Part shown: in pieces, positions 17,811 through 59,052 of the stretch
Layout: every line of letters starts with the position of its first letter
Position numbering within the stretch: position 1 is the stretch's first letter
NCBI GenBank assembly: GCA_964016885.1
Contig: OZ024759.1
Location: forward strand, 10,478,001-10,542,000
DNA length: 64,000 nt
Direction: 5' to 3'
Origin: Eledone cirrhosa
Lineage: Eukaryota
The notes under the pieces: generated by a model
Database searches by the model: none
The model's input: only the letters and a program-made list of their open reading frames with translations
Told to the model about the DNA's origin: nothing
Made by a program: the position numbers and the translations under genes

Positions 17811-17864
17811 TTTCTTGGATTATAACTTTGAAAAAAGGTTTTTTTCAAAATGAGTATGTTAACT

Positions 17865-19615
17865 ATGTATGTGTGTGTATATATAGGTATTAACTCTGTG
17901 TGTGTATATATAATAACCCTGTGTGTGTATATATAGGTATTAACTCTGTGTGTGTATATATAGGTATTAACTCTGTATGTATGTATATATAACAACCTTA
18001 TAGGTGTATATATATATGTATCAACTCTGTGTGTGTATATATATATATATATAACTGTTTCTACTTTAGGCACAAGGCCAGCAATTACCCAGTGCATTAC
18101 TGGTACTTTATTTTATCGACCCCGTAAGGATGAAAGGCAAAGTCAACCTCGGCGGGATTTGAACTCAGATCGTAAAGGGACGTAACTATGCTGGAAAGCA
18201 TGGCGTCCGACCCTCTACCGATACTGCCAAGCCAATATATAACAACCTTATATATGAATTAACTCTGTATGTATATATATATAACAACCTTAATATATGT
18301 ATCAACTCTGTATGTGTATATATATTCAACAACCTTATAGGTATCAACTCAGTATGAGTGTATATATAACAACTTTATAGGTGTTAACTCTGTATGTGTG
18401 TATATATATATATATAACAAACTTATAGGTATTAACTCAGTATGTGTATATAATAACCTTATAGGTGTATATATAGGTATCAACTCAGTATGTGTGTATA
18501 TATAATAACCTTATAGGTGTATATATAGGTATCAACTCTGTATGTGTGTATATATAATAACCTTATAGGTGTATATATAGGTATTAACTCTGTATGTGTA
18601 TATATAACAACCTTATAGGTATCAACTCTGTATGTGTGTATATATAATAACCTTATAGGTGTATATATAGGTATCAACTCTGGATGTGTGTATATATAAT
18701 AACCCTATGTGTATACATATAGGTATTAACTCTGTGTGTATATATAATAACCTTATAGGTGTATATATAGGTATTAACTCAGTATGTGTGTATATATAAT
18801 AACCTTATAGGTGTATATATAGGTATCAACTCTGTATGTGTGTATATATAATAACCTTATAGGTGTATATATAGGTATTAACTCAGTATGTGTATATATA
18901 ACAACCTTATAGGTATCAACTCTGTATGTGTGTATATATAATAACCTTATAGGTGTATATATAGGTATCAACTCTGTGTGTGTATATATAATAACCTTAT
19001 AGGTGTATATATAGGTATCAACTCTGTATGTGTGTATATATAATAACCTTATAGGTGTATATATAGGTATCAACTCTGTATGTATATATAATAACCTTAT
19101 AGGTGTATATATAGGTATCAACTCAGTATGTGTGTATATATAATAACCTTATAGGTGTATATATAGGTATCAACTCTGTATGTATATATAATAACCTTAT
19201 AGGTGTATATATAGGTATCAACTCTGTATGTGTGTATATATAATAACCTTATAGGTGTATATATAGGTATCAACTCTGTGTGTGTATATATAATAACCTT
19301 ATAGGTGTATATATAGGTATCAACTCTGTATGTGTGTATATATAATAACCTTATAGGTGTATATATAGGTATCAACTCTGTATGTGTGTATATAATAACC
19401 TTATAGGTGTATATATAGGTATCAACTCTGTATGTGTATATATATAATAACCTTATAGGTGTATATATAGGTATCAACTCAGTATGTGTGTATATAATAA
19501 CCATATAGGTGTATATATAGGTATCAACTCTGTATGTGTATATAATAACCTTATAGGTGTATATATAGGTATCAACTCTGTATGTGTATATAATAACCTT
19601 ATAGGTGTTAACTCT
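17865..19615. repeat. About 48-52-bp AT-rich satellite
   Basis: Unit AACCTTATAGGTGTATATATAGGTATCAACTCTGTATGTGTGTATATATAAT; about 1.5 inverted units recur at 29200-29287. Confidence 0.93.
18056..18233 (-). mobile_element. tRNA-derived SINE family A inserted in the satellite
   Basis: Near-identical to 13258-13449. Confidence 0.9.
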
Positions 19616-20864
19616 GTTTATATATAGATGTTAACTATCAAAAAATAAATAACATTTTACATATTAGATTTACAGCTTCGCGTGGCGATGCACGCAGCTG
19701 TTCGGACTTGGTCGCCTACTTGTGTATGGCGTGACCATGTGTCAGAAGATGGAATCGCTGCGAGGGCACGGGGCCTAGTTGGCAGCCGGGACTATTTGCA
19801 GGCTTGCTACATGCTGGACAGCGCGAGGAGACCGTTTTATCCAATTTACTCTAAATTTTATTAGAGTTATCTCCATTCATTTAGAGTTACTTCCCCTGTA
19901 TCGAACTCTTCTCTTTTTTTATTTGCTTTTTGGTACTTTGAAAAAATTCATTTTGGATATTGTTTTCATGTATGTAATGTTATCTTTGCTGTATATTATC
20001 GAAGAAACTAAACCTTCTCTCTATACACATACATTTCATTAGATACACACTTTATGTCAATAAACCTCACATACATTTTGGATATTGTGTTTATGTGAAG
20101 AGGCTTTTTTATGTGGCTTTCTGGCACATCTTAATATTAACCAGAATCTTTTGAGATCTGTCATCTTTGATCATAGTAAAGATTATACCCGTCTAGTTTT
20201 GAACTAAATTTTTTTTTTTAGATATCATCATCGTAATCAAAGATTAACTGTTGGTCAGTATTAACTAGATCGATATCATTTTAACATACGTAGCATAGAA
20301 CCATTTAGATTCTTCTTAGGAAACTTCATTTACTTTCTTTGTTCGTTTTTAACACTTCATTTACATTCTTAGTTTAGTTACCTCCCTCGATGTAGGAAAG
20401 GTTTTCTTGTTGTCCTATTTAATTCTATATATAATAAAAGACAAAATGTAAAAGACTTTCACTTCCTTTTACCGATGTCCAGCCTTCAAGGTCATATGCT
20501 GTGTAGTTTGCCGTAACAAGTGGGAATGGCGAAGTTTCTGTTAATAAAAAGAGGTTACATATTATATACAAATAGTGTTCAGTTTATTTTGGCAAAAATG
20601 AATAAATAAATCAAGTAGAGGTTTACCTTTTAACTAAGTACTTGTCCAGCAGTTGCCTCAAAAGGTAGATGGCATCCGTAGTACTTTTACCTGACACAAA
20701 TCCAAACTATAGAGGCATGTACTGTTTTCTTTGCTCTATACACATACATTTTATTAGATACACACTTTATGTCAACAACTCTCACACTTTGCATCTTATG
20801 TTCATGTGGCTTTCTGGCACATCTTCACCCACTCAACATGCTTTCTTTGAAATTAAAAAATAAT

Positions 20865-21040
20865 TGTTTATACTTTTGACACAAGGCCAGCAATTACCCA
20901 GCACATTACTGGTACTTTATTTTACCGACCCCGTAAGGATGAAAGGCAAAGTTAACCTCGGCGGGATTTGAACTCAGACCATAAAGGGCAGTAACTCTAT
21001 GCTGCAAAGCATGGCGTCCGACCCTCTACCGATACTGCCA
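20865..21040 (-). mobile_element. SINE family A inserted in the left arm only
   Basis: TSD AAAAAATAAT at 20855-20864 and 21041-21050; absent from the right arm. Confidence 0.92.
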
Positions 21041-23252
21041 AAAAAATAATACACATACAAATAGTGTTACCCCTTCTAAGAAACTAAACTAAACCATCTC
21101 AACGCTATATACATACTTTCTAACTCAAATTTCTCTCTGTAAACCTCACTCTGTAGATCTTTCTTTAGAGACATACATATAAAACTATATACTCTCAACT
21201 AAGAAAAATATATAAACCTTCTTCTCTATACCTTTCCTTTTTTCTTCTAATAAACATCTATACCTTTCCTTTTTTCTTCTAATAAACCTCTATACACAGC
21301 TACATTTTATTATCTTCTCTATTTCTTTCACACGTGTCCTCTTGTATGTAGAGAGAAACCTTTGTGAGATTCGAACTCACCATTGTAAAGTCCAACAACT
21401 TTACATAAATACTTTGCGCATTGATGTCCAATTTTTTCGGCGCATGCGTACTTTAGTAAAATTAAATGGCCGCATGAAGAACTTCATGTTTTACAACGTG
21501 AATTAAAAAAACGTTAAAAACTTGGATTTTACTCATTTTACGGAGGTAAAGTAAAGCTTTATTTTATGTTGACCAGTTTTGAAACATTTTCTGTTTATTT
21601 CCCTCCATAATGTCAGAATTATTTAAACATTAGTTTTGTTTAGCGACATCTTACATTCTAATATAATACAGCACCCCCTTCATACATATTTCTTGCTCAT
21701 ACGAAATAGTGTATTTTATTAATTATTATTTAAGCTGGTAAATAATATATTTCTATTTCCCTTCATGATATCCTCATATTTTGTAATCAGAGGTTAACTG
21801 TTGATCAGTGTTAACTAGATCGATATCGCTTTAACTTTTAACTTACAACCATTTATATTCTTAGTTTCTTACGCTAGAAACTTCATTTACATTTTTAGTT
21901 TCTTTTTTTCAACACTTCATCTACATTCTTAGTTTCCTTCCAACAATATTATTTAGACGATAGTTTTGTTGAGGCTACTGCCACATTTCTCTGTCATATG
22001 AATTAGAATTTAGCTTATTTTCTTTCTTATTTAAATAATATATTTCTAGTTCCCTTCACGATATCCTCGTGTTTTGTTGTAAATTCATTTTCGAGGACTT
22101 GCTCCTGTCACACATGATGTTGGTTGCTATATTCTGGTTATTAATATTAACCAGAATTTTTTTAGATCTGTCGTCTTTGACGGGATGAATGTTACACCCG
22201 TCTTGTTTTGGCCATAAAACTTAGGTTTTGTACCCATTTTTTAAAATAGATACCATGATCGTAATATAAGATTAACTGTTGATCAGTGTTAACTAGATCG
22301 ATATCACTTTAACCTACGTAACATAGAACCATTTACATTCTTAGTTTCTTCTTACGAAACTTCATTTACTTTCTTTGTTCCTTTTCAACACTTTATTTAC
22401 ATTCTTTAGAAACTTCATTCTTAGTTTCTTTTTCCATTTACATGCTTAATTTTAGACACTTCATATACATTTTTAGTTTCTTACTTTAGAAACTTCATCT
22501 ACATTCTTAGTTGTTTTTTTAGATATCCTCATCGTAAACAAATATTAACCAGATCGATATCGCTTTAACTTTTAATCTACGTAACAAATAACCATTTACA
22601 TTCTTCTTTAGAAACTTCAACTACATTCTTAGTTACTCCCTCGATGTAGGAAAAAGTTTTCTTGTTTCATCTATTTAAATGTATAAAAGACAAAATTGGA
22701 TGAATTTTATAAAGTTTAACATTCTTTTTATTGATAACGTATGTAAATGACTTTCATTTCTTTTACAGATGTCCAGCCTTCAAGTTCCTCTGCTGTGTTG
22801 TTTGCCGTAACAAGCGGGAATGGTGTAGTTTCTTTTAATAAAGAAAGTTTACATATTATATACGAATTGTATTGTTTATTTTGACAAAAATGAATAAAGA
22901 AAGTTTACATCTTATATACGAATTGTATTGTTTATTTTGACAAAAATGAATAAAGAAAGTTTACATCTTATATACGAATTGTGTTCAGTTTATTTTGACA
23001 AAAATGAATAAAGAAATGAAGAGTCTACAAGAAACTGAGTAAGCCGTCATATAAAGAACGTAAGTGTATTGAAGTTTCTAAATAAAGAAACTAAGAGTAA
23101 AATAAAGTTTCCTGAAAGAAACTGAGAAAGATGAAGTTTCTAAATAAAGAAACTAAAAATGATAAAGTTTCTAAATAAAGAAACTAAAAATGTTTTTGAA
23201 ATTGTCGAAAGAAAATTCTATGAAACGGGACCCCTTTTTTTTTTTTTTTATT

Positions 23253-23634
23253 CAAGGGAGGTAACTCTAATATTTTGAAGGAATTACCTCCCTTGCAAAA
23301 TCACCTTCGTCACCGTCGTTACCACCGTCGGCACCTTCGTAACCGTCGTCACCATTACCGCCGCCACCTGGTGGCGGAGGAAAAGATACCGACGACGACG
23401 AAGGTGCACCGTCGTCTTCGTCGATATCTTTACCGCCGCCACCTGGTGGCGGAGGTGAAGACACCGACGAAGACGACGGTGCACCTTCGTCGTCGTCGGT
23501 ATCTTACCTCCGCCACCAGGTGGCGGCGGTAATGGTGACGACGGTTACGAAGGTGCCGACGGTGGTAACGACGGTGACGAAGGTGATTTTGCAAGGGAGG
23601 TAATTCTTTCAAAATATTAGAGTTACCTCCCTTG
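23253..23634. other. GC-rich nested-palindrome core of the giant inverted repeat
   Basis: Three CCGCCACCWGGTGGCGG copies, two GGTGCACC copies and two flanking CAAGGGAGGTAA..TTACCTCCCTTG stem-loops. Confidence 0.92.
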
Positions 23635-25644
23635 AATTAAAAAAAAATTAAAAAAAGGGGGTCCCATTTCATAGAATTTTCTTTCGACAATTTCAAAAAC
23701 ATTTTTAGTTTCTTTATTTAGAAACTTTATCATTTTTAGTTTCTTTATTTAGAAACTTCATCTTTCTCAGTTTCTTTCAGGAAACTTTATCTAACTCTTA
23801 GTTTCTTTATTTAGAAACTTCAATACTCTTACGTTCTTTATAGCACGGCTTACTCAGTTTCTTGTAGACTCTTGATTTCTTTATTCATTTTTTGTCAAAA
23901 TAAACTGAACACAATTCGTATATAAGATGTAAACTTTCTTTATTCATTTTTGTCAAAATAAACAATACAATTCGTATATAAGATGTAAACTTTCTTTATT
24001 CATTTTTGTCAAAATAAACAATACAATTCGTATATAATATGTAAACTTTCTTTATTAAAAGAAACTACACCATTCCCGCTTGTTACGGCAAACAACACAG
24101 CAGAGGAACTTGAAGGCTGGACATCTGTAAAAGAAATGAAAGTCATTTACATACGTTATCAATAAAAAGAATGTTAAACTTTATAAAATTCATCCAATTT
24201 TGTCTTTTATACATTTAAATAGATGAAACAAGAAAACTTTTTCCTACATCGAGGGAGTAACTAAGAATGTAGTTGAAGTTTCTAAAGAAGAATGTAAATG
24301 GTTATTTGTTACGTAGATTAAAAGTTAAAGCGATATCGATCTGGTTAATATTTGTTTACGATGAGGATATCTAAAAAAACAACTAAGAATGTAGGTGAAG
24401 TTTCTAAAGTAAGAAACTAAAAATGTATATGAAGTGTCTAAAATTAAGCATGTAAATGGAAAAAGAAACTAAGAATGAAGTTTCTAAAGAATGTAAATAA
24501 AGTGTTGAAAAGGAACAAAGAAAGTAAATGAAGTTTCGTAAGAAGAAACTAAGAATGTAAATGGTTCTATGTTACGTAGGTTAAAGTGATATCGATCTAG
24601 TTAACACTGATCAACAGTTAATCTTATATTACGATCATGGTATCTATTTAAAAAAATGGGTACAAAACCTAAGTTTTATGGCCAAAACAAGACGGGTGTA
24701 ACATTCATCCCGTCAAAGACGACAGATCTCAAAAGATTCTGGTTAATATTAATAACCAGAATATAGCAACCAACATCATGTGTGACAGGAGCAAGTCCTC
24801 GAAAACGAATTTACAACAAAACACGAGGATATCGTGAAGGGAACTAGAAATATATTATTTAAATAAGAAAGAAAATAAGCTAAATTCTAATTCATATGAC
24901 AGAGAAATGTGGCAGTAGCCTCAACAAAACTATCGTCTAAATAATATTGTTGGAAGGAAACTAAGAATGTAGATGAAGTGTTGAAAAAAAGAAACTAAAA
25001 ATGTAAATGAAGTTTCTAGCGAAAGAAACTAAGAATATAAATGGTTGTAGGTTAAAAGTTAAAGCGATATCGATCTAATTAACACTGATCAACAGTTAAC
25101 CTCTGATTACAAAATACGAGGATATCATGAAGGGAAATAGAAATATATTATTTACCAGCTTAAATAATAATTAATAAAATACACTATTTCGTATGAGCAA
25201 GAAATATGTATGAGGGGGGTGTTGTATTATATTAGAATGTAAGATGTCGCTAAACAAAACTAATGTTTAAATAATTCAGACATTATGGAGGGAAATAAAC
25301 AGAAAATGTTTCAAAACTGGTCAACATAAAATAAAGCTTTACTTTACCTCCGTAAAATGAGTAAAATCCAAGTTTTTAACGTTTTTTTAATTCACGTTGT
25401 AAAACATGAAGTTCTTCATGCGGCCATTTAATTTTACTAAAGTACGCATGCGCCGAAAAAATTGGACATCAATGCGCAAAGTATTTATGTAAAGTTGTCG
25501 GACTTTACAATGGTGAGTTCGAATCTCACAAAGGTTTCTCTCTACATACAAGAGGACACGTGTGAAAGAAATAGAGAAGATAATAAAATGTAGCTGTATA
25601 TAGAGGTTTATTAGAAGAAAAAAGGAAAGGTATAGAGAAGAAGG

Positions 25645-25964
25645 TGTAGCGACGTGGTTAGTCGGTCTGGCCACTGCTTCTGATCGGATCTGAGAATAGC
25701 CCTTAAAAGGACTGTTATCGCATACGGTACGGATGAACAGACAAAAGAATATGTTGAAAGGACGAGCAAGGCGAGAGATGTGAGTGACAAGTGTGGCAGA
25801 GAAGAGGAACAACGATACGCAAGCTGACTCTGGCAAAGGTCGACTGGTGAAAGTAGGCGTTTTAATTTGGTGGCTTAAGGGTTGTTTGTTTCACGATGAG
25901 GTAGCTAGCTAAGCCGATAGATAGAGTTGTTTATTTCACAGATGTTATTTCCGGTGGCTGTACA
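25645..25964. mobile_element. Solo LTR (320 bp) in the right arm
   Basis: TGT...ACA termini and 4-bp TSD AAGG (25641-25644, 25965-25968); the left arm has the empty site at about 21215-21230. Confidence 0.8.
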
Positions 25965-26111
25965 AAGGTTTATATATTTTTCTTATGTGTCTCTAAAGAA
26001 ATATCTACAGAATGAGGTTTATAGAGAGAAATTTGAGTTAGAAAGTATGTATATAGTGTCGAGATGGTTTAGTTTAGTTCCTTATAAGGGGTAACACTAT
26101 TTGTATGCGTA

Positions 26112-27900
26112 TCATCATCATCATCATCATCATCATCATTTTACGTCCGCTTTTCCCTGCTTGCAAGTGTGGGACGGTTCTTATTCAGCACAGCTTCTCT
26201 CCACTTGTCACGGTCCTTCGTCATCTCCACCGTGAGCTTCAGCGATCTGAGGTCTGTTCTCACCACCTCCGCCCATGATTTTCGTGGTCTACATCTACCA
26301 CGTCTTCCTTCAAACGGCATTTCCTGGCACTTCTTCACCCATTGGTCACCCTCCATGCGCATCACATGTCCATACCACCTCAGTCTCCTCTCTCGCACAC
26401 TACATTCTATCCCTCTCAGACACAGTTTCTCTCTCAACAATTCATGCTGGGTCGTTCACGCACATTGACATTGCACATCCAACGGAGCATACTTGCTTCA
26501 TTTCTCTCCAGCCGTCGCATATCATCTACAGCTGCTGCACATGTCTCACTACCATGCAGTATCGCGCTCCTCACACAGGCATCATATAACCGGCCTTTCG
26601 TACGCAGGGAGAAACCCTTCTTCGTCAGCAGAGGAAGCAACTTCCTAAACTTCTTCCAACCCGTCCTTATTCTAGATACTATGGTCTCCCATGCTAATCT
26701 GATCTCCTAGGTACCGGAAGCTATCCACCACTTCTATAGCATCCACCTGCATTTGAAAAATGTGTCTATCAATGCGACTTCTACTGTCTAATTTCCCTGT
26801 ACAACTACTGCATACATATTTCTCCCTACCTGTTAGTTTGCCTGCTATCCCACTACATCTCTTGTGTACCCAGGATCTGCATTTTGTGCATTTTATAGAA
26901 TTTATGCTAGTTCCTTTTCTGCATATCGAACATGGCCATTTCCCTGACGGAATCAGAGTTTTGTCCTCTTTTCTACTCATCAACACTTTTGTCTTAGCTA
27001 TGTTCACTCTCAGTCCTCTTGCTTCCAGCTGCTGTTTCCATAGCCAGAATTTATTCTCTAGCTCCTCTACTGATTCTGCTATAAGAACCAGATCGTCAGC
27101 ATAGAGAAGTTCCCATGGACAGCCAGTCTTAAACTCATCTGTTATGGCTTGGAGGACTATAATGAACAAGAGCGGGCTGAGGACCGAACCTTGATGTGCT
27201 CCTACTTGTATCTGGAATTCCTCACTAAACTCCATTCCTACCCTGACTTTACTGACAGTACTTCTGTACAAAGTATGCACAAGTCATTCCTCAACACCTA
27301 GTTTCCTTAGGGACCACCAGATGACAGATCGGGGTACCCTATCAAAGGCCTTCTCTAGGTCAACAAGGCTAAGTATAGTGGATTATTTTTCTCTAAGAAC
27401 CTCTCTTGTAATTGTCTCACCAAGAAGAGGGCATCTGTTGTACTCTTCCCAGGCACAAAACCAAACTGCATCTCATCTAGTTTGACCCTTTCTCTAATTA
27501 GTTGTGCTAATATCCGTTCTGCCACTTTCATAACCTGATCCATCAGTTTTATACCCCTATAATTGCTCCTCACCAGAGCATCCCCTTTACCTTTGTAGCA
27601 ATTTATGAGAATACTCCTGCTCCAGTCTTTGGGTATGACACCACCATATATAGCCTGATTGATGATGCGTGAAACCAGTTTAGTGCCTATGTCTCCTGAT
27701 GCCTTCAGCATCTCAGCAACTATCACCGATGGTCCAGCAGCCTTACCATTTTTCATTTCCTTAATCACCTCTTGGACCCTATATTCGTCAATCTCAATAG
27801 CTGGTCCCTCTGTCTTACTGAGGGTAACTTCTCTCTCTCCCATTCGTTCTCCACATTCATCAGTCTCTCATAATGACATTTCCAGGCCTCCTTTTTCTGC
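26112..27900 (-). mobile_element. RTE LINE, 5'-truncated and frameshifted, inserted in the right arm
   Basis: QFGFVPGKSTTDA, GAHQGSVLSPLLF, LLYADDL, RLRWYGHVMR; (ATG)n tail at 26112-26138. Confidence 0.93.
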
Positions 27901-29289
27901 TTATTCGTGTATATTTTTTTTAATTTCAAAGAAAGCATGTTGAGTGGGTGAAGATGTGCCAGAAAGCCACATGAACATAAGATCCAAAGTGTGAGAGTTG
28001 TTGACATAAAGTGTGTATCTAATAAAATGTATGTGTATAGATCAAAGAAAACATTACATGCCTCTATAGTTTGGATTTGTGTCAGGTAAAAGTACTACGG
28101 ATGCCATCTACCTTTTGAGGCAACTGCTGGACAAGTACTTAGTTAAAAGGTAAACCTCTACTTGATTTATTTATTCATTTTTGTCAAAATAAACTGAACA
28201 CTATTTGTATATAATATGTAACCTTTTTTTATTAACAGAAACTTCGCCATTCCTACTTGTTACGGCAAACAACACAGCATATGACCTTGAAGGCTGGACA
28301 TCGGTAAAAGGAAATGAAAGTCTTTTACATTTTGTCTTTTATTATATATAGATTTAAATAGAGGAAACAAGAAAACCTTTCCTACATCGAGGGAGGTAAC
28401 TAAACTAAGAATGTAAATGAAGTTTAATGTAAATCAAGTTTCTAAAGAATGAAACTAAAAATGGAAATGAAGTGTTAAAAACGAACAAAGAAAGTAAATG
28501 AAGTTTCCTAAGAATCTAAATGGTTCTATGCTACGTATGTTAAAATGATATCGATCTAATTAATACTGACCAACAGTTAAACTTTGATTACGATGATGAT
28601 ATCTAAAAAAAAATTTCGTTCAAAACTAGACGGGTATAATATTGACTATGATCAAAGATGACTGATCCAAAAGATTCTGGTTAATATTAAGATGTGCCAG
28701 AAAGCCACATAAAAAAGCCTCTTCACATAAACACAATATCCAAAATGTATGTGAGGTTTATTGACATAAAGTGTGTATCTAATGAAATGTATGTGTATAG
28801 AGAGAAGGTTTAGTTTCTTCGATAATATACAGCAAAGATAACATTACATACATGAAAACAATATCCAAAATGAATTTTTTCAAAGTACCGAATAGCAAAT
28901 AAAAAAAGAGAAGAGTTCCATACAGAGGAAGTAACTCTAAATAAAGGGCGATCACTCTAATCAAATTTTGAGCAAATAGGAGTAAGACGGATTCCTCGCG
29001 CGGTCCAGCATGTAGCAAGCCTGCAAATAGTCCCGGCTGCCAACTAGGCCCCGTGCCATCGCAGCGATTCCATCTTCTGACACATGGCCACGCCATACAC
29101 AAGTAGGCGACCAAGTCCGAACAGCTGCGTGCATCGCCACGCGAAGCTGTAAATCTAATATGTAAAATGTTATTTTTTGATAGTTAACATCTATATATAA
29201 ACAGAGTTAACACCTATAAGGTTATTATATATACACACATACTGAGTTGATACCTATATATACACCTATAAGGTTATTATATATACAGA

Positions 29290-31340
29290 CAGACTTATCC
29301 AGCTCTCAATACCAAAGTTCGGTGCTAGTCCCTCCAGGATTTTCCATATGTATATCTCTGCGTATCTCTCCCGTCTTCGTTCCAAGGAGTAAAGGTTCAG
29401 TTCGTTTAGCATCTCCCAGTAGCTTATATCCTTCATCGTCGCAATCCTCTTGGTGTAGCTTCGCTGGATTGCTTCAAGCTCCATGGTTAGTTTGACACTA
29501 TGGGGTGACCACAGCTGGAAGCAATAGTCCAGGCGGCTTAGGACAAATGTTCTCCATTATATCATCAAGGTCCAGCCAGTGAGTCGTCTGCACATTGTCG
29601 CCACCTTCATGATGTGTGAGGAAAAAGATGCATCGTCACTCATGTCTACACCCAGGTCTCGTAGCGATTTCGACACGGGAATTTAGGTCCCTCCTGGTCC
29701 AGTGTAGCTGTGTTGTACTGTATTTGTGTTTGCAGGTTTGTATTGTAGGGCTTGCATGTTGTTGTCTTCCGCCCATTTGTATATAGCATCCAGATCTTGT
29801 TGTAAAAGGGCAGCGTCAGCAGAGTTTTTGATTGCCTGTGCTACCTTAGTGTCATCAGCATAGCTAGTGAGGAATCTTGTATGTACTGCAGAGGGCATGT
29901 CTGAGAGAGCTACCAAAAACAGTAGTGGTCCCAAGACTGTGCCTTGGGCACCCCACTTGTTATTGATGTTTCCTTTGAGAGGGCCCCGTTTGCTGCAACT
30001 GTATAGCGTCTGTCCTTTAAGAAGTCATGCAGCCACTCACCTACTTTTACAGTTATGCCGAGTCCGTGTAGTTTGTGACATAACATTCCGTGGTCGACCT
30101 TGTCAAAGGCTTTCTCAAAGTCTAGATATATCACGTCCACATGTGAGCTGTCTAGCAGTTGTTTCAGTACCCAGTCGTATTGATGTAGCAGCTGTGTAAG
30201 GCAGCTTCTTCCTGGGCGAAAGCCATGCTGCGTACTGGTCAGGTGGTCATTTTCTTTGAGGAAAGTGATCAGTTTCTTTCTGATGATTCGCTCCATGACC
30301 ATACTGATATGTGACGTCAGTGAGACTGGCCTATACTTTTTGGCCTCCGCTCCGCTACCTCCTTTATGGATAGGGCATATTGTGCCTTCTTTCAGCTGCC
30401 TAGGTAGTCTACCGCTAGCCAAGGAGCTTCTGAAGAGCGTCGTCAGTGGAGTTGCTAAGGCTCGCTTTCATATTTTTAAGAGGACTGCTGGGAATCCATC
30501 AGGTCCAGCAGCTGAGTCTGTTCTAATTTTCTCTATGGCGTAAACCACATCCTCCTCCATTATGTCTATGTGGTTGTGAATTGACAGTATCGGTAGAGGG
30601 TTGGACGCCATGCTTTCTAGCATAGTTACGTCCCTTTACAGTCTGAGTTCAAATCCCGTCGAGGTTAACTTTGTCTTTCATCCTCACGGGGTCGATAAAA
30701 TAAAGTACCACTAATGTACTGAGTAATTGCTGGCCTTGTGCCTAAAGTAGAAACAGTTATGTCTATGTGGTTGATGGTCGCCATTTCTTCATGGAGTGTT
30801 GTGGCATCAAAGAATTCCTCTGGATTTCGTATTTGCATGTGCCTCAGTGGACATGTGAACACACTTTTGTACTGTTCGTTCAGTATTTTACTTATCTCTT
30901 GGGATTCTCGGTCAATGAACCGTCTTTATGGAAGAGTGGCCCAATCTTGCAGTCTACCTAGAAAGTCTGTTTTGCAAATTTAAAGAAGGCCTTAGGGTCT
31001 GTTTTAATATTTTCTATGGCTCTGCTTTCTTTCTTTGCCCTCTCATTTTCATGGGAAACTTTGAGTGCAATCTCGATGTCAAGAAGTGTACGTTTCAAAT
31101 AGGATTCCTTCTTGTTTTTTTTTTGTGCATTCAACTGGTTTGAGAGCTTAGTTCTTCGTCTGATAAGGGTTTTTCTGTCTCTGGGAATAAGATTTTTGTG
31201 TCTGTTGGCCTTTTTCTCCGGGACAAACTTTTGGCATAGAGTTTGTATCGTTGTCATGAAGTGTTGAAAATGTGTGTTGGTGTCTTGTGTGGCGATGTTG
31301 TCACTCCATATTTGCTTCCAGATTTCTCTCGAGTTTTTTC
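29290..31340 (-). mobile_element. CR1/L2-like LINE ORF2 remnant
   Basis: YRPVSLTS, QHGFRPGRSCLTQL, YLDFEKAFDKV, SYADDTK and LYSLERRRER motifs; frameshifted. Confidence 0.9.
30577..30756 (+). mobile_element. SINE family A nested in the CR1-like LINE
   Basis: 17-bp TSD TTATGTCTATGTGGTTG at 30560-30576 and 30757-30773. Confidence 0.92.
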
Positions 31341-31359
31341 CGGTTAGCCTTGTAGAAGT

Positions 31360-31419
<60 letters not shown>

Positions 31420-31456
31420 TATATATATACATGTGTGTGTGTGTATGTATATATAT

Positions 31457-32330
31457 AGAGACGTGCTTCGTCCAATGCAAATCGCTGCTGACAGTAATGC
31501 ACAAGTCACGTTCACCAGAAGACTTCTTGATATTAGTGTTGTGGAGGGAGTATGTGGATGCTGGGTTTTTCCTCCCAGAATGCATGGTGGTACACTTGTC
31601 CACAGCCAGTCCATGATCCATTGCTGCATTGTGTCCAGGTCAGATTGCAGGAAAGATCTATAATGTTCAGGATATGTCCTTTTCATCTCAAGGTACAGCT
31701 TGATGTCATTTGCATTTCAACACTGTGGCATTCTGTAATCAATATATGCAACAAACAAAAGGGGACTAAGAACAGGTCCCTTTGGTACACCAGATGACAT
31801 CACATTGAGTGAAGAATGCTGTCCTAGACCCGAACTACCTCTCTTCGACTGAGAATGAAGGACTTCAACCAGTTTAAAAGATCATCTCTCTCTCACCCAT
31901 TGCAGAGTTTTGCCATAAGTCTTTTGTGTGGCACAGAATTGAAAGCTTTAGCAAAGTCAAGATAAACTGCATCCACCCATGAGCCGCCATCAGTGATCCA
32001 GGTGATGTCTTCAAGAAACTCGACAAGTTGATCACAGCAGCTGGAGTTAGGGATAAATCTAAATTGCAAGGGCCAGATAAGGCTGTGGGAATCCCAGAAG
32101 TTCCAGAGTGTTTCTCTGACACAGGTCTCTATCACTTTGGTGATGTAGCTAGTAAGACTGACCGGACGATAGTTGACAGGTGACAGATACCTTCTTTAAA
32201 TACTTTTTATGTACAGACTGACTGACCCCTTCCCCCTGAGGATGCCAACTTTGTTCCAGCCATCCGAATACTGTTGATTCAGTTAGGATCTAGCTGTTGA
32301 ATCTGCCAGAGCTCAGCCGTCGCTGTACTA
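31457..32330 (-). mobile_element. Second CR1/L2-like LINE family, RT remnant
   Basis: VYLDFAKAFNSVPH and ERDLCITVSSDL; overlaps in homology with about 63310-63430. Confidence 0.82.
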
Positions 32331-34330: not shown

Positions 34331-36156
34331 TTGCCCCTTGTTTTGCTCTAAATTTGATTAGAGATATTTCCCTTTATTTAGATAACTTCCCCTAATGTTT
34401 TCTAGGACATCTAAGAAAATAAACCTTCTCTCTGTGAAGAGGTATTTTATGTTTTATTTACTGTGGCTCTCTGGCACATATTCACCCACTCGACACATAC
34501 AAATAATGTTACCAATCCTAAATAAACTAACCTAAGCCATCTCGACACTATATACATTTCTACTGCATTTCTGTTATAATGTATTAGCAAGAATACTCAA
34601 GGTTTGTTTGTGCCTTCAAGCGTATTTTGCAAAGTATAAAACCGGAAATCAACTCTGTCTTCACATCCGTTTGTAAGTGACCACGGATATTCATCATTTC
34701 ATATAAATGAATGGCAATGTGGTATATATGCAATAATATACTGTGTATCTTAAGAAGAAACTATAAAAGCTGAGAAAGAAGTAAAAGAAAAAATGCAGTA
34801 AATTTACTGGCTGCAGTGCCAGAACTTTGTTGTCTGCTGAGAACTATGGAAAAAAGAAAGAAACCACAAAAATGAGGAAGTTGCTTCAAATTCTGTTTTT
34901 TTTTTTAATGAAGAAAGGAAAAAAAAACAGATTTCTAGCAAAGTTAGATATTTTGGGTGCGGATATAATCGATTACATCGAACTTAATATTTGGCTAGTA
35001 TTTATGATTTCGACATCGGTCCCGACAGGATTTGAACATATAACTTAACAGTGCATATCATATATCATATCATACCGAATATGATAACCATTTTTATACC
35101 ATATGTCATTTCTGTTCCCCTTTTTATTGTATATTATAATTTACTGCCATATTAATGAAGAAAATAGAGAAATCCTATCATATTATGTAAAGTTTTCATC
35201 CCCATTCTATAGTTATTATGAACTTAATCATTTCTCTCTACACATTCTCAATAAATCTCATTCTGTGGATCAGCCATCTTTCTTTATTGAATACATCCTT
35301 TACCTTGTCAACAATACGTTTTACTATCTTCTCTTTTTAGAGACTACTAAGAAAAATATATAAACCTTCTTCTCTATACTTTTCATATTTTCTTTTAAGA
35401 AACAAAACGAAACCTCTATATACAGCTACATTTTTATTATCTTCTCTATTTCTTTCACGATGCATGGCACCTTCATTTCTCGCACACGTGTCCTCTTGTA
35501 CGCTGAGTGATTTGCTCAAGAACACAACGCAAAGCCCGGTCTGAGAATCGAACTCCCGATTGTAAAGCCCGACGACTTCACATAAATACTTTGCACATGC
35601 GTACCTTGTGTAACTCTGTTTAATAAAAATAAAATGGCAGCCAGAAGAACTTCATGTTTTCCAACATGAATAATTAAAAAAAAACGTTAAAAACTTTGAC
35701 TTTACTAATTTTACGGAGGTAAAGTAAAGCCTTATTTTATGTTGATCAGTTTTATTAAAATATTTTCTATTTATTTCCCTAATGTCAGAAATAATTATTT
35801 TAACGTTAGTTTTGTTTAGCTTCTGCCACACCTTACCTTCTAATGTAATACACCTCTCCCACATATTGGTCATATGAAATGGCATATTTCTTTTCAAGTT
35901 GGTAAATTTCTAGTTCCCCTCATGATATCCTCGTGTTTTGTTGTAAATTCGTTTTGGAGGACTTGCTCTTTGTCGACATATTCCTTTCACACTAGATGTG
36001 CCGTTGGGGTGTCAACCTGTGCCACTGCAGTCTGTTGTCACCACTGTTTTCTATTCTCCGTCACATGTATGGATTCTTCGTTCTGATAGAGTTTCTTTTC
36101 CATGGCAGAATCCACTTCTTCTTCTTCAAGTCTTCCACATGATGTTGGTTGCTATT

Positions 36157-36492
36157 CATTTCATTTCATTTTACGTCCGCTTTTCCCTGCTTGCAAGGGT
36201 GGGACAGGAACTGATTCTGGCTTGATTTCTACAGCTGGATGCCCTTCCTAACACCAACCTCATTTACAGTGAGTGCTAGGTGCTTTTTTTGTCGTGGCAC
36301 CTACACGTCCACTTTGCAGTGGAATGATAGGGACCCCAGTCCCTATTATCTCATTTCTACAGCTGAGTAAACTGGAGCAATGTAGAATAAAGTGTCTTGC
36401 TCAAGGAAACAACACATCACCCGGTCTGAGAATTGAACTCACAACCTTTCGATTGCAAGGCCAATGCTCTAACCACTAAGCCATGTGTCTCC
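36157..36492 (-). mobile_element. SINE family B, full length
   Basis: tRNA-like head with A/B boxes plus RTE tail. Confidence 0.9.
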
Positions 36493-37861
36493 ATATTCTG
36501 GGATAATTGCTGGCCTTGTGCCAAAAGTAGAAACAATTAATATTAACCAGAATCTTTTTGAGATCTGTCGTCTTTTATTCAGTGTGAATATTACACTTGA
36601 ACGAATTATTTTCTAAACATCATCGTAATCAAAGGTTAACTGTTGATCAGTGTCAACTACATAGATATCGCTTTAACTTTTAACCTACGTAACAGAGCCA
36701 TTTACATTCGTAGTTTGGCAGCTTCATTTCTCTCACACTTGTCTTCTTGTACATAGAAGTAAACCTTTTGTTGTCAACAGTGAGTATAGCTCCACACCAC
36801 TGATATTGTCCAACTCATTTTTGGAGCAACGTCAAATAATGTCTTACTCAAAACTGTGGTCAATGTCGCATAGTATCTCCCACGCTTGCATGGGTCGTCT
36901 TGTTTATATATGTGTGTGCTGTTAGGGAGTGCACTTAGAGTTGTCCATTCTTTCGTGAATGTACAAACAGCACAAAGGATTATTTAGTAGGATCCTCTAC
37001 GGCCAGCTAAACCATAGTCAGTTCCTGCTTAAAGTGCGAAAGGATCAGTTTAATGACATACTTCTCGTAGGATCCTGTACAGTCAGCTAAACCCTGGTCA
37101 ATACAAGCTTAGAGGGCGAATGGATCCTATACTTCACATAATATCTATGTCCAACGAAGCAGTTTTATAGTGTATACGTCCCATGGCAAACTAAACGCTG
37201 GTCAGAGGGCGAAATAAGCCCTTCATTAATGTAGCTGGACTGTCGTCTATACGGAGTTAAGTGATTGTCCATTGAAAAAAAAATATATATATAAACGAAA
37301 TGAATTGAGGTAATTCGTTCGGATTAGATTTTCAAGACGATGTTTTTAATGAAATTAGTTTGATAATTTATAAAGATCGAATCCCTCATCGTTACAATAC
37401 CACTGATGCGCGAATAATTTTCTTGTAAAAATGTTTACTCAGAAACCGATTTACCGCCCGTTGTTTCATTTATATTTTTTTTTAACAAAAAAATGTGAAA
37501 CGTACCCATAAGGATGAGTATTCTACTCAATAGAATTGCGACCTTCGAGGTGACCTGCGAGCTGCGCCTCGGACTTCCAGTCTATATGATTGACGCTCGT
37601 TTAGTGGTGGCCTGCGATTGCTAAGTGTAGATAATTCACAGTTTTTGCTTTAAAAAATTGTGAATTATCCTCCCCTTTGATATTACCTCACTTGATTTTA
37701 AGAAACTTCATCCTTAGTTTCTTTTTTCGTCATTTACATTCTTTAGACACTTGATATATGTCCTTGGTTTCTTTCTTTGGAAACTTCATCTCCATTCTTA
37801 GTTACTTTCTTTAGACACTTCATCTACATTGTTCCTAGAAACTAAAAATGTTAGTTTTTTT

Positions 37862-38060
37862 CGTTAGAAACTTCATCTACATTTTTAGTTTCTTTCTTTA
37901 GAAACTTCATCTACATTTTTAGTTTCTTTCTTTAGAAACTTCATCTACATTTTTAGTTTCTTTCTTTAGAAACTTCATCTACATTTTTAGTTTCTTTCTT
38001 TAGAAACTTCATCTACATTTTTAGTTTCTTTTTTCATCTACATCCTTAGTTTTTTTCTTT
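37862..38060. repeat. 34-bp tandem subrepeat of the foldback arm
   Basis: TTTAGAAACTTCATCTACATTTTTAGTTTCTTTC repeated; degenerate versions occur throughout the arms of both copies. Confidence 0.85.
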
Positions 38061-38570
38061 AGACACTTCACTTGCGTTCTTTTTAGTACGTCTTACTAAG
38101 TTTCTTATAGACTCTTAATTTCTTTATTCACTTTTGTCAAAATAAACCAATATGTAAACGTTCTTTATTAACAGAAACTTCGCCATTCCCACTTGTTGCG
38201 GCAACACAGCATATGACCTCGAAGACTGGACATCTCTAAAAATAAATGGAAGTCATTTACATACGTTATCAATAAAAAGTATATTTAACTTTAATAAAAT
38301 TCTTGAAACCTTTTCCTACATCAAGGGAGGTAACTAAAGAATGTATATTAAATTTCTGAATGTAGATGAAGTGTCAGAAACTAAGAATGTAAATGGTTCT
38401 ATGTTACGTAGGCTGAAAGTTAAAGCGATATCGATCTAGTTAACACTTAATCTTCGATTACGATCATGATATCTAAAAAAAAATTCGTTTATGGCCAAAA
38501 CGAGACGGGTGTAATATTTACCCTGACCAAAGACGATAGATCTCAAAAGATTCTGGTTAATATTAATAAT

Positions 38571-38680
38571 TGTTTCTACTTTTGGCACAAGGCCAGCAAT
38601 TACCCAGTGTATTACTGGTACTTTATTTTATCGACCCCGTAAGGATGAAAGGCAAAGTTAACCTCGACGGGATTTGAACT
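38571..38680 (-). mobile_element. SINE family A, 5'-truncated
   Basis: Matches the 3' portion of 13258-13449. Confidence 0.88.
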
Positions 38681-40799
38681 AATAGCAGTCAACATCATGT
38701 GTGACAAGAGCAAGTCATCTAAAACGAATTTACAACAAAACACGAGAATATGATGAAGGGAACTACAAATATACCAACTTAATTAATAATTTTAATAAAA
38801 TCCGTTATTTCGTATGACCAAGAAATGTAGTTTTATATAGAGGTTTCTTCGAAGGAAAGGCATTCTAAAAAGAGAAAATAGTAAAACGTATTTTGGGGTC
38901 TCGAGAATATCTGCTAGTGTTGACAAGGTTTACAATAATAATAATAATAATGAATGAAATTATTGTGTACGGTGCTCAGGTGCACTACAACTCATCAAAG
39001 GTGCATGTATAGTACATAGAATAATGTACAAATGTCAATGTATTCAATAAAGAAAGATCTACAGAATGAGGTTTAAAGAGAGAAATTTGAGTTATATTTA
39101 TTAGAAAGTATGTATATGGCTTACTTGAGTTTCATATTTGTATGTTTTTTAGTTTAAAAGAAAGAATGTCGAGTAGGTGAAGATGTGGCAGAAAGCTACA
39201 GTACCTCTTCACATGAACACAATATCCAAAATGTGAGAGTTATTGACATAAAGTATGTATCTAATAGTGTGTATAGAAAGAAGGTTTAGTTTCTTAGCTG
39301 GTCCTAGTATACAGCAAAGAAAACATTACATAGCTCTCTACACGGGGAAAACAATATCCAAAGTGATTTTCTTTCAAAGAATCGGGGAAAAAAAAAAAAA
39401 AGAGTTCCATTAAGGGGAAGTAATTCTAACAAAAGGGAAATAACTCTAATCAAATTTACAGCTAGAAGCATTGTGCGTGAGGTCAAACATATAGCCAGCC
39501 TGCAAATAGGCTGCCACCTAGGCCGCGTGCCACCTCAAAGATTCGATCATCAGACACATAGAATGGTCACGCCATACATAAGTAGGCGACGAAGTCCGAA
39601 CCACTACGCACATTGCCACGCGAAGCCGCAATACTACTCAGACAATTAGTCATACTTATAGGTAAAATGTTATTTATTTACAAAAATATATATATAAACG
39701 GAAAGAAAGCGAGATAACAGGCATCAAAATATATAGTGTTACCTCACTCACATTCCGTTTCTATATATAAATTATGTTAGAAACTACTAGTATTTAGTAC
39801 ATATATACCGAACAATTAATATTTAAGTAAATATACATGTTTCTGTAAATAAATTAAAAAAAGTATATATATAAAGTTTGTTCTAAATTTATCGCCGGGT
39901 TTCCTTGTTAAGTGTCTCAGAGTACAAGACTCTCTCTGGATAGGATTCTAGTCTATCGCAGGATTAACTCCCTAACTACTGAGTGTACTGGAACATGAAA
40001 TGTTGCCCTAAAACTACTTCTTTCGCCCTCTTATCTGCTATTGACTATGGTTTAGGAGAGCTTATAAGTTAACCACACCCTAAATCCGTTTCTTTCGCCC
40101 CCTAACCTGGCATTCAAATACTAATTTGAAGCAACATCAAGTTTTCGAGGTTTGGGGAGATAGCAAGATCAAGTTAGTACTTTTGGTTTTTTTAAATTAT
40201 AAATAAAGTGAAGTCAAGTAATTCGGAGTAAACATTTTTACTGTGTTTTAGTTAAATTCTAAAATAACGAAGAACTACTATGCTAAGGGCACCCTGCTGT
40301 AGAAACCAGCTACTGTTGGATGCCCTTCCTAACATCAACCCGTGTGGACTGTGTCCTTATTTTCATGGCACCAAACCAACCAATTTACAATGTGAACTGG
40401 TCACTTTAGTCGCATCACCAAAACGACCCCTTCACGGGTTGGGCTAAGTGATTTTGTTGTGTCACCATTATGCCCACTTTACAGTGTAGGCTGGGTGCTT
40501 TTTTTCGTATCTCCAACATGACCCCTTCACAGATTGGTCTGGATGAGAGGACTTAGTGCCCTTTTGTCATGAAACCGACATGGCCACCTTACAGGGTCCA
40601 CAGCAGCATTGTGGGAGAGTCTGTTCAGCTTTCCATACATGGGTTGGTTAAGAGAGCTGCATCAGATGTGGATGGGTGGAGAGATAGGTCTAAGGAAGGT
40701 ACTTAGCTGGTGAGGGGTGGAGTGATTAACGCGTGGGAGGAGTATGGAATGGGGGAGGGAGAAGTTTGGCATACGAGAGACCTCTAGATCTTGCTTCAT

Positions 40800-52679: not shown

Positions 52680-53049
52680 ACACACACACATACAACAAAA
52701 GGATGTTTATACACACACAGACATGTCAAAACACTTCTACAAATAACTGAACCTAAATCATACCTGTTGTTGTTGTTGCTGTTATATCAGACACCTGTAC
52801 AGGTGTGAACAACTTCCTACAACGTTGCATTTCATGGGAAGCTTTCTCAGCTGTTTTAAGGAGAGTGTGCTGTGGGGTGGAGGCGATGATACAGTGTGGC
52901 CTAATGGTTAAGGTGTTCACTTTACAATCATCAGTACCCAGGTTCAATACTACCCTCAGACATCTTAGATATTATTTACCATAAACGTCCAATGATTGTA
53001 AACTATTTCTTCACAAGATTCTATTTTCACAAATAGTATACACACACCT

Positions 53050-56000
53050 GTACACCAGGTCCGAACACAGAGGAACCAAACTCCCACTGTCATCACCTCC
53101 ATCTCACCTGCCCTCCCCATCTCTCATGTACACCAGGTCCGAACACAGAGGAACCAAACTCCCACTGTCATCACCTCCATCTCACCCACCCTCCCCATCT
53201 CTCATGTACCCCAGGTTTAAATACAGAGGAACCAAACTCCCACTGTCATCACCTCCATCTCACCCACCCTCCCCATCTCTCATGTACCCCAGGTTTAAAT
53301 ACAGAGGAACCAAGCTCCCACTGTCATCACCTCCATCTCACCCACCCTCCCCATCTCTCATGTACCCCAGGTTTAAATACAGAGGAACCAAGCTCCCACT
53401 GTCATCACCTCCATCTCTCCCACCCTCCCCATCTCTCATGTACCCCAGGTTTAAACACAGAGGAACCAAACTCCCACTGTCATCACCTCCATCTCTCCTG
53501 CCCTCCCCATCTCTCATGTACCCCAGGTTTAAACACAGAGGAACCAAACTCCCACTGTCATCACCTCCATCTCACCCACCCTCCCCATCTCTCATGTACC
53601 CCAGGTTTAAATACAGAGGAACCAAGCTCCCACTGTCATCACCTCCATCTCTCCCACCCTCCCCATCTCTCATGTACCCCAGGTTTAAACACAGAGGAAC
53701 CAAACTCCCACTGCCATCACCTCCATCTCACCCACCCTCCCCATCTCTCATGTACCCCAGGTTTAAACACAGAGGAACCAAACTCCCACTGTCATCACCT
53801 CCATCTCTCCCACCCTCCCCATCTCTCATGTACCCCAGGTTTAAACACAGAGGAACCAAACTCCCACTGCCATCACCTCCATCTCACCCACCCTCCCCAT
53901 CTCTCATGTACCCCAGGTTTCAATACAGAGGAACCAAACTCCCACTGTCATCACCTCCATCTCACCCACCCTCCCCATCTCTCATATACACCAGGTCCAA
54001 ACACAGAGGAACCAAACTCCCAGTCATCACCTCCATCTCACCCACCCTCCCCATCTCTCATGTACACCAGGTTTAAATACAGAGGAACCAAGCTCCCAGT
54101 CATCACCTCCATCTCTCCTGCCCTCCCCATCTCTCATGTACCCCAGGTTTAAACACAGAGGAACCAAACTCCCACTGTCATCACCTCCATCTCTCCTGCC
54201 CTCCCCATCTCTCATGTACACCAGGTCCAAATACAGAGGAACCAAACTCCCACTGTCATCACCTCCATCTCACCTGCCCTCCCCATCTCTCATGTACACG
54301 AGGTCCAAACACAGAGGAACCAAACTCCCACTGTCATCACCTCCATCTCACCCACCCTCCCCATCTCTCATGTACCCCAGGTTTAAATACAGAGGAACCA
54401 AACTCCCACTGTCATCACCTCCATCTCACCCACCCTCCCCATCTCTCATATACACCAGGTCCAAACACAGAGGAACCAAACTCCCAGTCATCACCTCCAT
54501 CTCACCCACCCTCCCCATCTCTCATGTACACCAGGTTTAAATACAGAGGAACCAAGCTCCCAGTCATCACCTCCATCTCTCCTGCCCTCCCCATCTCTCA
54601 TGTACCCCAGGTTTAAACACAGAGGAACCAAACTCCCACTGTCATCACCTCCATCTCTCCTGCCCTCCCCATCTCTCATGTACACCAGGTCCAAATACAG
54701 AGGAACCAAACTCCCACTGTCATCACCTCCATCTCACCTGCCCTCCCCATCTCTCATGTACACGAGGTCCAAACACAGAGGAACCAAACTCCCACTGTCA
54801 TCACCTCCATCTCACCTGCCCTCCCCATCTCTCATGTACACGAGGTCCAAACACAGAAGAACCAAACTCCCACTGTCATCACCTCCATCTCTCCTGCCCT
54901 CCCCATCTCTCATGTACCCCAGGTTTAAACACAGAGGAACCAAACTCCCACTGTCATCACCTCCATCTCTCCTGCCCTCCCCATCTCTCATGTACACGAG
55001 GTCCAAACACAGAGGAACCAAACTCCCACTGTCATCACCTCCATCTCACCTGCCCTCCCCATCTCTCATGTACACCAGGTCCAAATACAGAGGAACCAAA
55101 CTCCCACTGTCATCACCTCCATCTCACCTGCCCTCCCCATCTTTCATGTACACGAGGTCCAAACACAGAGGAACCAAACTCCCACTGTCATCACCTCCAT
55201 CTCACCTGCCCTCCCCATCTCTCATGTACACGAGGTCCAAACACAGAAGAACCAAACTCCCACTGTCATCACCTCCATCTCACCCACCCTCCCCATCTCT
55301 CATGTACACCAGGTCCAAACACAGAAGAACCAAACTCCCACTGTCATCACCTCCATCTCACCTGCCCTCCCCATCTCTCATGTACACGAGGTCCAAACAC
55401 AGATGAACCAAACTCCCACTGTCATCACCTCCATCTCACCTGCCCTCCCCATCTCTCATGTACACCAGGTCCAAATACAGAGGAACCAAACTCCCACTGT
55501 CATCACCTCCATCTCACCTGCCCTCCCCATCTCTCATGTACACCAGGTCCAAACACAGATGAACCAAACTCCCACTGTCATCACCTCCATCTCACCTGCC
55601 CTCCCCATCTCTCATGTACACGAGGTCCAAATACAGAGGAACCAAACTCCCACTGTCATCACCTCCATCTCACCTGCCCTCCCCATCTCTCATGTACACG
55701 AGGTCCAAATACAGAGGAACCAAGCTCCCACTGTCATCACCTCCATCTCTCCTGCCCTCCCCATCTCTCATGTACACGAGGTCCAAACACAGAGGAACCA
55801 AACTCCCACTGTCATCACCTCCATCTCACCTGCCCTCCCCATCTCTCATGTACACGAGGTCCAAACACAGAGGAACCAAACTCCCATTGTCATCACCTCC
55901 ATCTCACCTGCCCTCCCCATCTCTCATGTACACGAGGTCCAAACACAGAGGAACCAAACTCCCACTGTCATCACCTCCATCTCACCTGCCCTCCCCATCT

Positions 56001-56075
56001 CTCATGTACACCAGGTCCAAACACAGATGAACCAAACTCCCACTGTCATCACCTCCATCTCTCCTACAATTCCCA
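53050..56075. repeat. 78-bp minisatellite (roughly 38 units)
   Basis: 26-aa periodicity in the ORF track (MYTRSKHRGTKLPLSSPPSHLPSPSL). Confidence 0.97.
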
Positions 56076-56216
56076 TCTCTCACTATTATTGGCAAATGGG
56101 GTCCCAGATGCTGACTGGCCCCAGCAGCCAGAATAGAGAAGGCATTTCCCCAGAGGATGGTGAGGGAGATGTGCTGGAAGATCCAGTTTATGAGGCTCAC
56201 ACATGCAGCCTACCAG

Positions 56217-58814: not shown

Positions 58815-59052
58815 TATATATATATATATATCATCATCGTTTAACATCCATCTTCCATGCTAGCATGGGTTTAATGTATATATATATATATATATACACA
58901 TATATATACATCATCATCGTTTAACGTCCATCTTCCACGCTTGCATGGGTTTGGATATATATACATACATACATATACATATATATATATACGTACATAT
59001 ATATACATATACATACATATATATATACACATACATATATATACATATACAT

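Follow-up and report, generated by a model that had tools for sequence, protein, structure and literature searches.

Quasi-palindromes sharing a GC-rich core in the Eledone cirrhosa genome: arm homogenisation from the axis and a likely spread by segmental duplication

The 64,000-nucleotide stretch of the Eledone cirrhosa genome studied here (hereafter, the window) comprises positions 10478001-10542000 of contig OZ024759.1, here termed C20, which makes up 1.2% of a 3.0-Gb assembly in 1796 contigs; unless a contig is named, the positions given below are those of the window. Within a dense field of repeats and transposable element (TE) fragments that extends across the window lies a long inverted repeat centred on T23444. 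This palindrome is one of 17 non-coding quasi-palindromes that share a GC-rich core. On balance, we think it probable that the two arms have copied each other from the axis outward, as seen at three loci the sides of which are matched by their flanks, that the family was spread as 10-20-kb segmental duplications and that hairpin- or cruciform-templated repair keeps the arms alike. A first-pass annotation, made from the letters of the window, had described the palindrome as real, which the inverted repeat about T23444 bears out; it was also right, in our judgement, that the structure was built by fold-back and that it is old, modular, non-coding and, with 17 core loci in the genome, multi-copy. 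The main feature, i.e. the axis-centred homogenisation of left and right arms at each locus, lies beyond that single-window view.

Self-BLAST of the window gives an aligned arm of ~3.7 kb. The left arm occupies 19526-23443 (plus strand; 3918 bp, including a short interspersed element (SINE) and a 32-bp duplication) and the right arm 23445-29296 (minus strand; 5852 bp, including insertions resembling a solo long terminal repeat (LTR) and an RTE element). The symmetry is not base for base, as had first been described: the inner arms (21257-23443 and 23445-25636, ~2.2 kb) are 98.3% identical, the outer arms (19526-20860 and 27916-29296) 92.5% and an additional pair (21046-21191 and 25971-26115) 90%, with eight exact pairs around T23444 being followed by 12 pairs that hold three mismatches. 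From the axis outward, substitutions in successive 250-bp intervals of the inner arm amount to 3.6, 2.4, 0, 0.4, 0.4, 1.2, 1.6, 1.2 and 1.1%, the axis-proximal interval differing by 3.6% compared with 0-2.4% further out; in the outer arm the values are 1.2-5.8%. Neither arm end resembles an element terminus. The left arm starts within a satellite of 27/52-bp units (17822-19608, plus strand; with a SINE at 18045-18234), the 52-bp units of which run out to ~17822 and are mirrored on the right by only ~1.5 units (29210-29296); position 19535, which had been proposed as the start of an element, is therefore not an element end. The right arm ends inside a CR1/L2-like long interspersed element (LINE) fragment (29297-31716, minus strand), which is cut inside its open reading frame (ORF), and this end is a breakpoint, not the end of an insertion.

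The palindrome, the arms of which had been described as AT-rich, is not so at its centre, a 284-bp core (23302-23585) of 60% GC that is nearly invariant among the 17 loci and has an observed/expected CpG ratio of 1.57, compared with 0.48 for the window. The core is organised as S-P-U-P-U'-P-S', i.e. a stem S, a palindrome P, a unit U, P, an inverted U, P and an inverted S, with a period of 75 bp, the 23-bp palindromes P of the window core being centred at 23369, 23444 (the main axis) and 23518. A small hairpin adjoins it (23253-23296, mirrored at ~23592-23634), the stem of which is altered on both sides between subfamilies. Alignment of the parts of the core with one another shows both halves of the 75-bp unit to be diverged copies of the 38 bp with which the stem begins: the 38 bp that follow the first P agree with them at 29 of 38 positions, a score reached by 0 of 20000 base shuffles and 5 of 20000 triplet shuffles. 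The core probably arose through two fold-backs in succession, at P and at a point 38 bp into a copy of the stem. Across the loci, two that could not be measured being left out, its length is 210, 285 or 360 bp (i.e. steps of 75 bp) apart from small indels, and of the inner units some are inverted and others lie in direct tandem. Over the first 55 columns of the stem the difference between loci is 0.019, compared with 0.07-0.18 in the next 500. Three reading frames (Pro/Gly/Asp-rich, Arg/His-rich and Thr/Val-rich) are open over most of the core (23224-23600) and have no Pfam match; they are probably a by-product of triplet periodicity. A coding core was considered and rejected, given these frames without Pfam matches and no single-copy source at up to three mismatches, as was a C2H2 zinc-finger cluster, for which only chance motifs were found.

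A search of the genome with half of the core (36 of 36 candidates scored) recovered 17 loci: 16 are spread over the 9.2-35.2 Mb interval of C20, and the remaining one is on C19. The stem 26-mer has 34 matches with at most one mismatch, all in inverted pairs at these loci; nine further matches with three mismatches are microsatellite-like (four for the control). All 17 cores sit within longer inverted repeats. The possibility, raised at first, that the arm sequence occurs only at the window locus does not hold, the core being present at 17 loci and the modules being more widespread. Flanking sequence is common to many of the loci for 5-20 kb, with blocks of 10-20 kb at 92-98% identity; C20:9586895 and C20:12054308 are 98.3% identical over 11 kb and share a total of no less than 20 kb, and C20:12794778 matches C19:14060236 over ~10 kb. 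LINE and SINE insertions occupy matching positions in the shared blocks, and the same is true of 8-10-kb relatives on C15. The ends of blocks and arms fall in microsatellites, modules or LINEs, and arm ends vary between loci both in position (0.7-3.8 kb) and in sequence, being common only to duplicated sister loci. The longest direct repeat flanking any of the 17 called ends is 4 bp, these ends being approximate in that they were called automatically by a procedure that stops early at large indels; at the window, where a SINE caused the automatic end to be misplaced, separate inspection shows no target-site duplication (TSD).

At three of the 17 loci the left and right inner arms have different nearest relatives, the left arm of C20:12794778, for example, resembling the window arms along its length and its right arm those of the C19 locus; the core lies at junctions between different flanking blocks at 3/17 loci. 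Copies with a coding centre, which the first-pass annotation had suggested looking for, were not present among the ORFs of the fetched loci, and neither the ORF lists of these loci nor a Pfam scan of 59 chosen ORFs revealed a conserved coding centre, the scan returning retroelement, Penelope and mariner matches, one Pif1-helicase fragment and three low-complexity matches to unrelated families. The shared flanks with their old TE insertions, the junction loci and the absence of a coding centre fit segmental duplication with exchange at the core, but not cut-and-paste transposition of the type set out for Tetris (PMC4079207, excerpt). Segmental duplication in blocks of 10-20 kb, not transposition, is the likely means by which the family spread along one chromosome. 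A literature search that extended to sources other than subscription journals, Dfam and Repbase found no description of such a palindrome family in cephalopods.

The relationship between the two arms of each locus was analysed with a tree of 560 bp from the 34 inner arms of the 17 loci, in which seven loci form left-right cherries, seven are unresolved and three have unlike arms. The mate arm of the same locus is the nearest relative for 22 of 34 arms, and 32 of 70 doubleton alleles are common to both arms of one locus, where ~3% would be expected. Grouping by side and by locus was then compared in trios of loci whose sides are matched through their flanks, with paralogues standing in for orthologues. 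In the first trio, informative sites within 600 bp of the core number 21 by locus, none by side and eight other, and grouping of the inner arms by side is rejected in an approximately unbiased (AU) test (p=4e-36). Beyond 900 bp, by contrast, 280 sites group by side and one by locus over a span part of which may be non-homologous between sides; in the clearly homologous outer 2.4-3.9 kb the count is 26 by side to one by locus. The first 300 bp of the second trio yield ten sites by locus and none by side. Arms of one locus thus share derived variants that are absent from the flank-matched arms. Grouping by locus near the core and by side in the outer arms implies that homogenisation acted on the arms in situ once the loci had been duplicated, working outward from the axis; near-axis variants became locus-specific on both arms after duplication, clearly so in one trio and weakly in the second. 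A tract starting at the axis has the polarity that would be expected of intrastrand fold-back. Template switching is reported to homogenise the arms of inverted repeats and to invert spacers (PMC8604942, excerpt).

In the explanation we favour, the duplication that left loci sharing flanks with old TE insertions would have occurred during break repair. The arms would likely be kept alike by hairpin- or cruciform-templated repair, whether by a template switch or by cleavage and resynthesis, and the core may act as a fragile recombination hub that exchanges flanks, which would yield the three loci with unlike arms and promote further duplication. Several points weigh against this explanation. 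The evidence comes from one assembly, breakage, cruciforms and polymorphism are not among the observations, and no short-read contig listed spans the whole core. Most duplicated blocks extend past the sequence compared, and they may be parts of large mobile units, the true ends of which lie further out. Beyond 300 bp the second trio is weak (seven sites by locus, five by side, 13 other), and a three-way comparison of the window inner arms with that of C20:12794778, which gives 44 sites common to both window arms and 12 and 14 private to one, fits conversion or a younger fold-back alike. With respect to the core, the second unit resembles the stem less well (27/38, reached by 353 of 20000 triplet shuffles), and so small a difference between loci in the stem would call for conversion from locus to locus or for selection.

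The first-pass annotation proposed a non-autonomous foldback element, which in its fuller form would be a Mutator- or Galileo-type terminal inverted repeat (TIR) transposon that has lost its middle domain. Such an origin would account for the multi-copy state and for inverted arms that, as in Tetris (PMC4079207, excerpt), are long and modular and contain tandem repeats. However, the arm ends differ from locus to locus, with no shared outer terminus and, at the 17 approximate ends, no flanking repeat that approaches an 8-10-bp TSD; conservation is highest in the centre and not towards the ends; the co-duplicated flanks include older TE insertions, so the loci are not unrelated insertion sites; and no transposase-bearing centre was seen among the ORFs inspected at the fetched loci, the genome search not being exhaustive. 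Since no common termini, TSDs or coding partner were found, the family is not a classical foldback transposon, and we regard this reading as largely refuted and very improbable. Unlikely, though deserving of more serious consideration, is a mosaic non-autonomous rolling-circle (Helentron/HINE-like) family of large, cargo-bearing local units that became palindromic by fold-back, the homogenisation of the arms being secondary. Modular build, internal tandem arrays and lack of TSDs are all consistent with it, young Helitron-type elements are abundant in the genome (PF14214; 150 of 3704 candidates scored), and left-arm relatives carry ~130 bp of a 1600-match repeat, the ends of which match an autonomous Helitron-type locus. 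Yet comparison of the window arms with 10 of the 150 scored loci gave only a 93-bp patch at 75% identity, at two related amplicon loci; block ends lie inside microsatellites, modules and LINEs; and the combination of subterminal inverted repeats (subTIRs), 3' stem-loop and TT ends that defines these elements in the excerpted source (PMC4067079) was not recognised, there being no recurrent ends to examine. The annotation's other suggestion, that a linear DNA with hairpin ends, of the parvovirus-like rolling-hairpin or protelomerase type, had integrated as a head-to-head intermediate of its replication, would fit a GC-rich branched core with flip and flop units and the arrays of alternating orientation in related families, and the genome does contain 29 Parvo_NS1-like matches. 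Against it stand the lack of any similarity (E 1e-4) to the window arms or core in 200 kb around 11 sampled NS1-like regions, about half of the 29 matches, the absence of ResT/TelK matches in the genome and arms that carry host TEs and co-duplicated flanks; in addition, the core 26-mer was not found in viral contigs, and we consider the chance of such an origin to be slight indeed. The Parvo_NS1-like matches lie, for example, at C12:9072000-9083000 and on C25 and C18; several are in open frames of 450-570 codons and clustered on C12.

A hairpin-RNA family (long double-stranded RNA, microRNA (miRNA)-like or a piRNA source), transcribed through the axis and with its core conserved for small RNAs or as an editing substrate, is in our view improbable. 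The near-invariant stem and the high CpG ratio of the core would suit it, and several modules fold as hairpins, one of which (H) is strand-biased (-14.7 versus -9.9 kcal/mol). Covariation in the H hairpin is, however, not above that of shuffles (215/500), the covariation term of the A module is -0.23, and none of 26 Rfam matches reaches the gathering score; single folds of 36 A modules range in z from +1.2 to -4.2, alignment folds are weak, and local alifold gave no structure, possibly owing to a script problem. Six short motifs do not occur in 24,410 characters of the supplement text of PMC9699675, an extract that gives no real negative for a known octopus miRNA, and, according to an excerpt of PMC12479628, molluscs are reported to be without a dedicated endo-siRNA pathway. 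The apparent TATA box differs by 1 bp from the end of a high-copy repeat, and the window copy lacks it. A promoter or gene reading, which drew on a CCAAT-like array, the TATA-like motif and a donor-like site in relatives, was rejected: the motif is a variant of the 1600-match repeat with Helentron-type ends, which makes a gene less plausible and leaves room for a Helentron-like ancestry. That HINE-like non-autonomous repeat (1600 matches of one 21-mer) has ends matching a young autonomous Helitron-type family, the copies of which are 97-99% identical.

Fold-back chimeras yield palindromes, and with some C23 arms being 99.9% identical an assembly or long-read artefact has to be weighed. The window arms differ by 1-6% and have distinct insertions, one with a flanking 4-bp repeat, and contigs from public runs (possibly runs of the assembled sample) contain arm pieces that differ at 0-1 positions as well as a 61-nt piece across the first core palindrome, all of which makes an artefact scarcely credible.

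By analogy with known systems, the segmentally duplicated family would seem to work most like a primate core duplicon combined with arm-to-arm conversion and the fragility of palindromic AT-rich repeats (PATRRs), differing in that it is short, non-coding and nearly spacerless, with a conserved centre. Mammalian X/Y palindromes have spacers. The arms of one such palindrome evolve in concert through arm-to-arm gene conversion (10.1101/800185, excerpt), as those here appear to, but they exceed 10 kb, with >99% identity and genes, whereas the present arms are 0.7-3.8 kb, with no gene and essentially no spacer; unlike in the mammalian case, conversion here seems confined to a tract starting at the axis. 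With primate core duplicons such as LCR16a/NPIP (PMC7419210, excerpt) the family has in common a shared core in interspersed duplicated blocks that are concentrated on one chromosome, mosaic flanks and rearrangement junctions; the primate core is a transcribed gene of ~20 kb, the present one, judged from its letters, a non-coding nested palindrome of 0.2-0.4 kb. Palindromic GOLGA8 cores, named in the title of a reference within PMC7419210, are a further example of such duplicons. Like human PATRRs, which are near-perfect palindromes and sites of breakage and exchange, the present structures may belong to the class with little or no spacer that is described as the most recombinogenic (PMC7999016, excerpt); as portrayed there, PATRRs are 200-600 bp long, >90% AT and not mutually homologous, in contrast to homologous palindromes of kilobases with a conserved GC-rich centre. 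Foldback elements (Tetris, FB and Galileo) likewise have long, modular, non-coding inverted arms with expandable internal tandem repeats, but the TIRs, middle domain and 8-10-bp TSDs given for Tetris in the excerpted account (PMC4079207) contrast with the absence here of a middle domain, a common terminus or such a TSD, and with a conserved centre. Helentron/HINE (DINE-1-like) elements similarly have central tandem repeats and no TSD, and a HINE-like fragment has been captured in relatives of the left arm; their 12-15-bp subTIRs, 3' stem-loop and TT target, as set out in the same excerpt of PMC4067079, have no counterpart recognised at the termini here, nor was an autonomous partner found for the window modules.

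The arms are composed of modules, some of which belong to a wider set of repeats. A CpG-rich A module (19650-19830, plus strand; mirrored at ~29000-29150) is common to this wider family, its 19-mer having 112 genome matches versus none for a reversed control, all of them on C7-C23 among the matches listed (100/112). Four copies of a C module (at 20233, 21783, 22261 and 22517; span 20233-22569, plus strand) are present, and the 71 matches of its 25-mer are found on C7, C11, C13, C15, C19 and C20 only. Tandem subrepeats of 56 bp (x3.2) and 31 bp (x3.8) occupy 22837-23190 (plus strand; mirrored at 23700-24056), and both 31- and 34-bp subrepeats are present in the arms; the internal modules, 34-bp subrepeats and mirrored triplication of the first-pass annotation are thus confirmed, although the unit of the triplication (22837-23016) is 56 bp rather than 58. 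That each arm has its own later insertions also stands: the left has a high-copy SINE (20860-21041, plus strand), and the right has a solo-LTR-like insertion (25645-25964; TG...CA, with AAGG on either side) and a truncated RTE-like LINE with an (ATC)n tail and an RVT_1 match (26110-27915, minus strand). The SINE and the RTE element inserted independently, at A/T-rich sites that correspond to each other in the two arms. No Pfam match was obtained for five ORFs from the window arms and core, in agreement with the earlier view that the arms have no credible ORF. Elsewhere in the window, a second, degenerate member of the family (35346-39768) is 69-80% identical, mosaic and without a GC core, its modules being partly inverted and accompanied by 80-bp and 34-bp arrays. 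A 78-bp repeat is present in 39 copies at 53049-56082, one related unit of which occurs at the far end of C15 family members. Penelope-like fragments lie at 58924-60672; such fragments adjoining the C19 core locus themselves form palindromes of 2.8-3.1 kb.

Other palindrome families, likewise restricted to particular chromosomes (C13, C15 and C23; arms up to 21 kb), are composed of related modules. In relatives on C13, C14 and C15 the same T and A runs enclose another hairpin, with a 24-bp stem and a 35-nt loop. The C23 loci share only the A module and an upstream hairpin with the family; their palindromes have arms of 17-21 kb, which mostly diverge by 0-0.8%, on either side of a 135-nt spacer. 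Those at C23:9372000-9416000 and 11783000-11817000, with 21-kb and 17-kb arms respectively, have inverted 88-bp arrays and a hairpin at their centre. The hairpins of C13/C15 and of C23 have in common an 18-mer for which there are 376 matches, often alternating in orientation every 1-5 kb. These chromosome-restricted palindromes and the alternating 18-mer make iterated fold-back look general on small chromosomes. Arrays of 2-3-kb units, alternating and tandem, with fold-back junctions that have short loops only, occur at C13:36.5-44 Mb and C12:43-50 Mb. Separately, near-identical Helitron Rep matches are spaced ~100-130 kb apart in one orientation at C20:3.5-5.2 Mb and C27:13.6-15.5 Mb and on C19 and C16; they probably represent a very large tandem amplicon common to several chromosomes, two sampled copies of which are 96-97% identical over ~17 kb.

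A broader proposal, which we advance tentatively as possible rather than probable, is that the family represents a selfish structure that needs no protein of its own, i.e. a spacerless palindrome whose GC core would be repaired to symmetry instead of losing its centre, and whose breakage would seed intrachromosomal duplication. Each small chromosome would then have its own family, with a GC core on C20, a short-loop hairpin on C13/C15 and 17-21-kb arms on C23, reshaped by iterated fold-back. The 17 persisting palindromes, with intact centres and concerted evolution centred on the axis, constitute a natural replicated series for measuring how long the tracts of self-repair are in an animal germ line, how fast it proceeds and how it is biased. 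Should the core drive its own duplication, the family would be a non-coding counterpart of the primate core duplicons and a candidate driver of the growth of repeats on the small chromosomes; if it does not, the family would still be a well-defined ampliconic repeat family, one that TIR-based annotation would mislabel as a foldback transposon.

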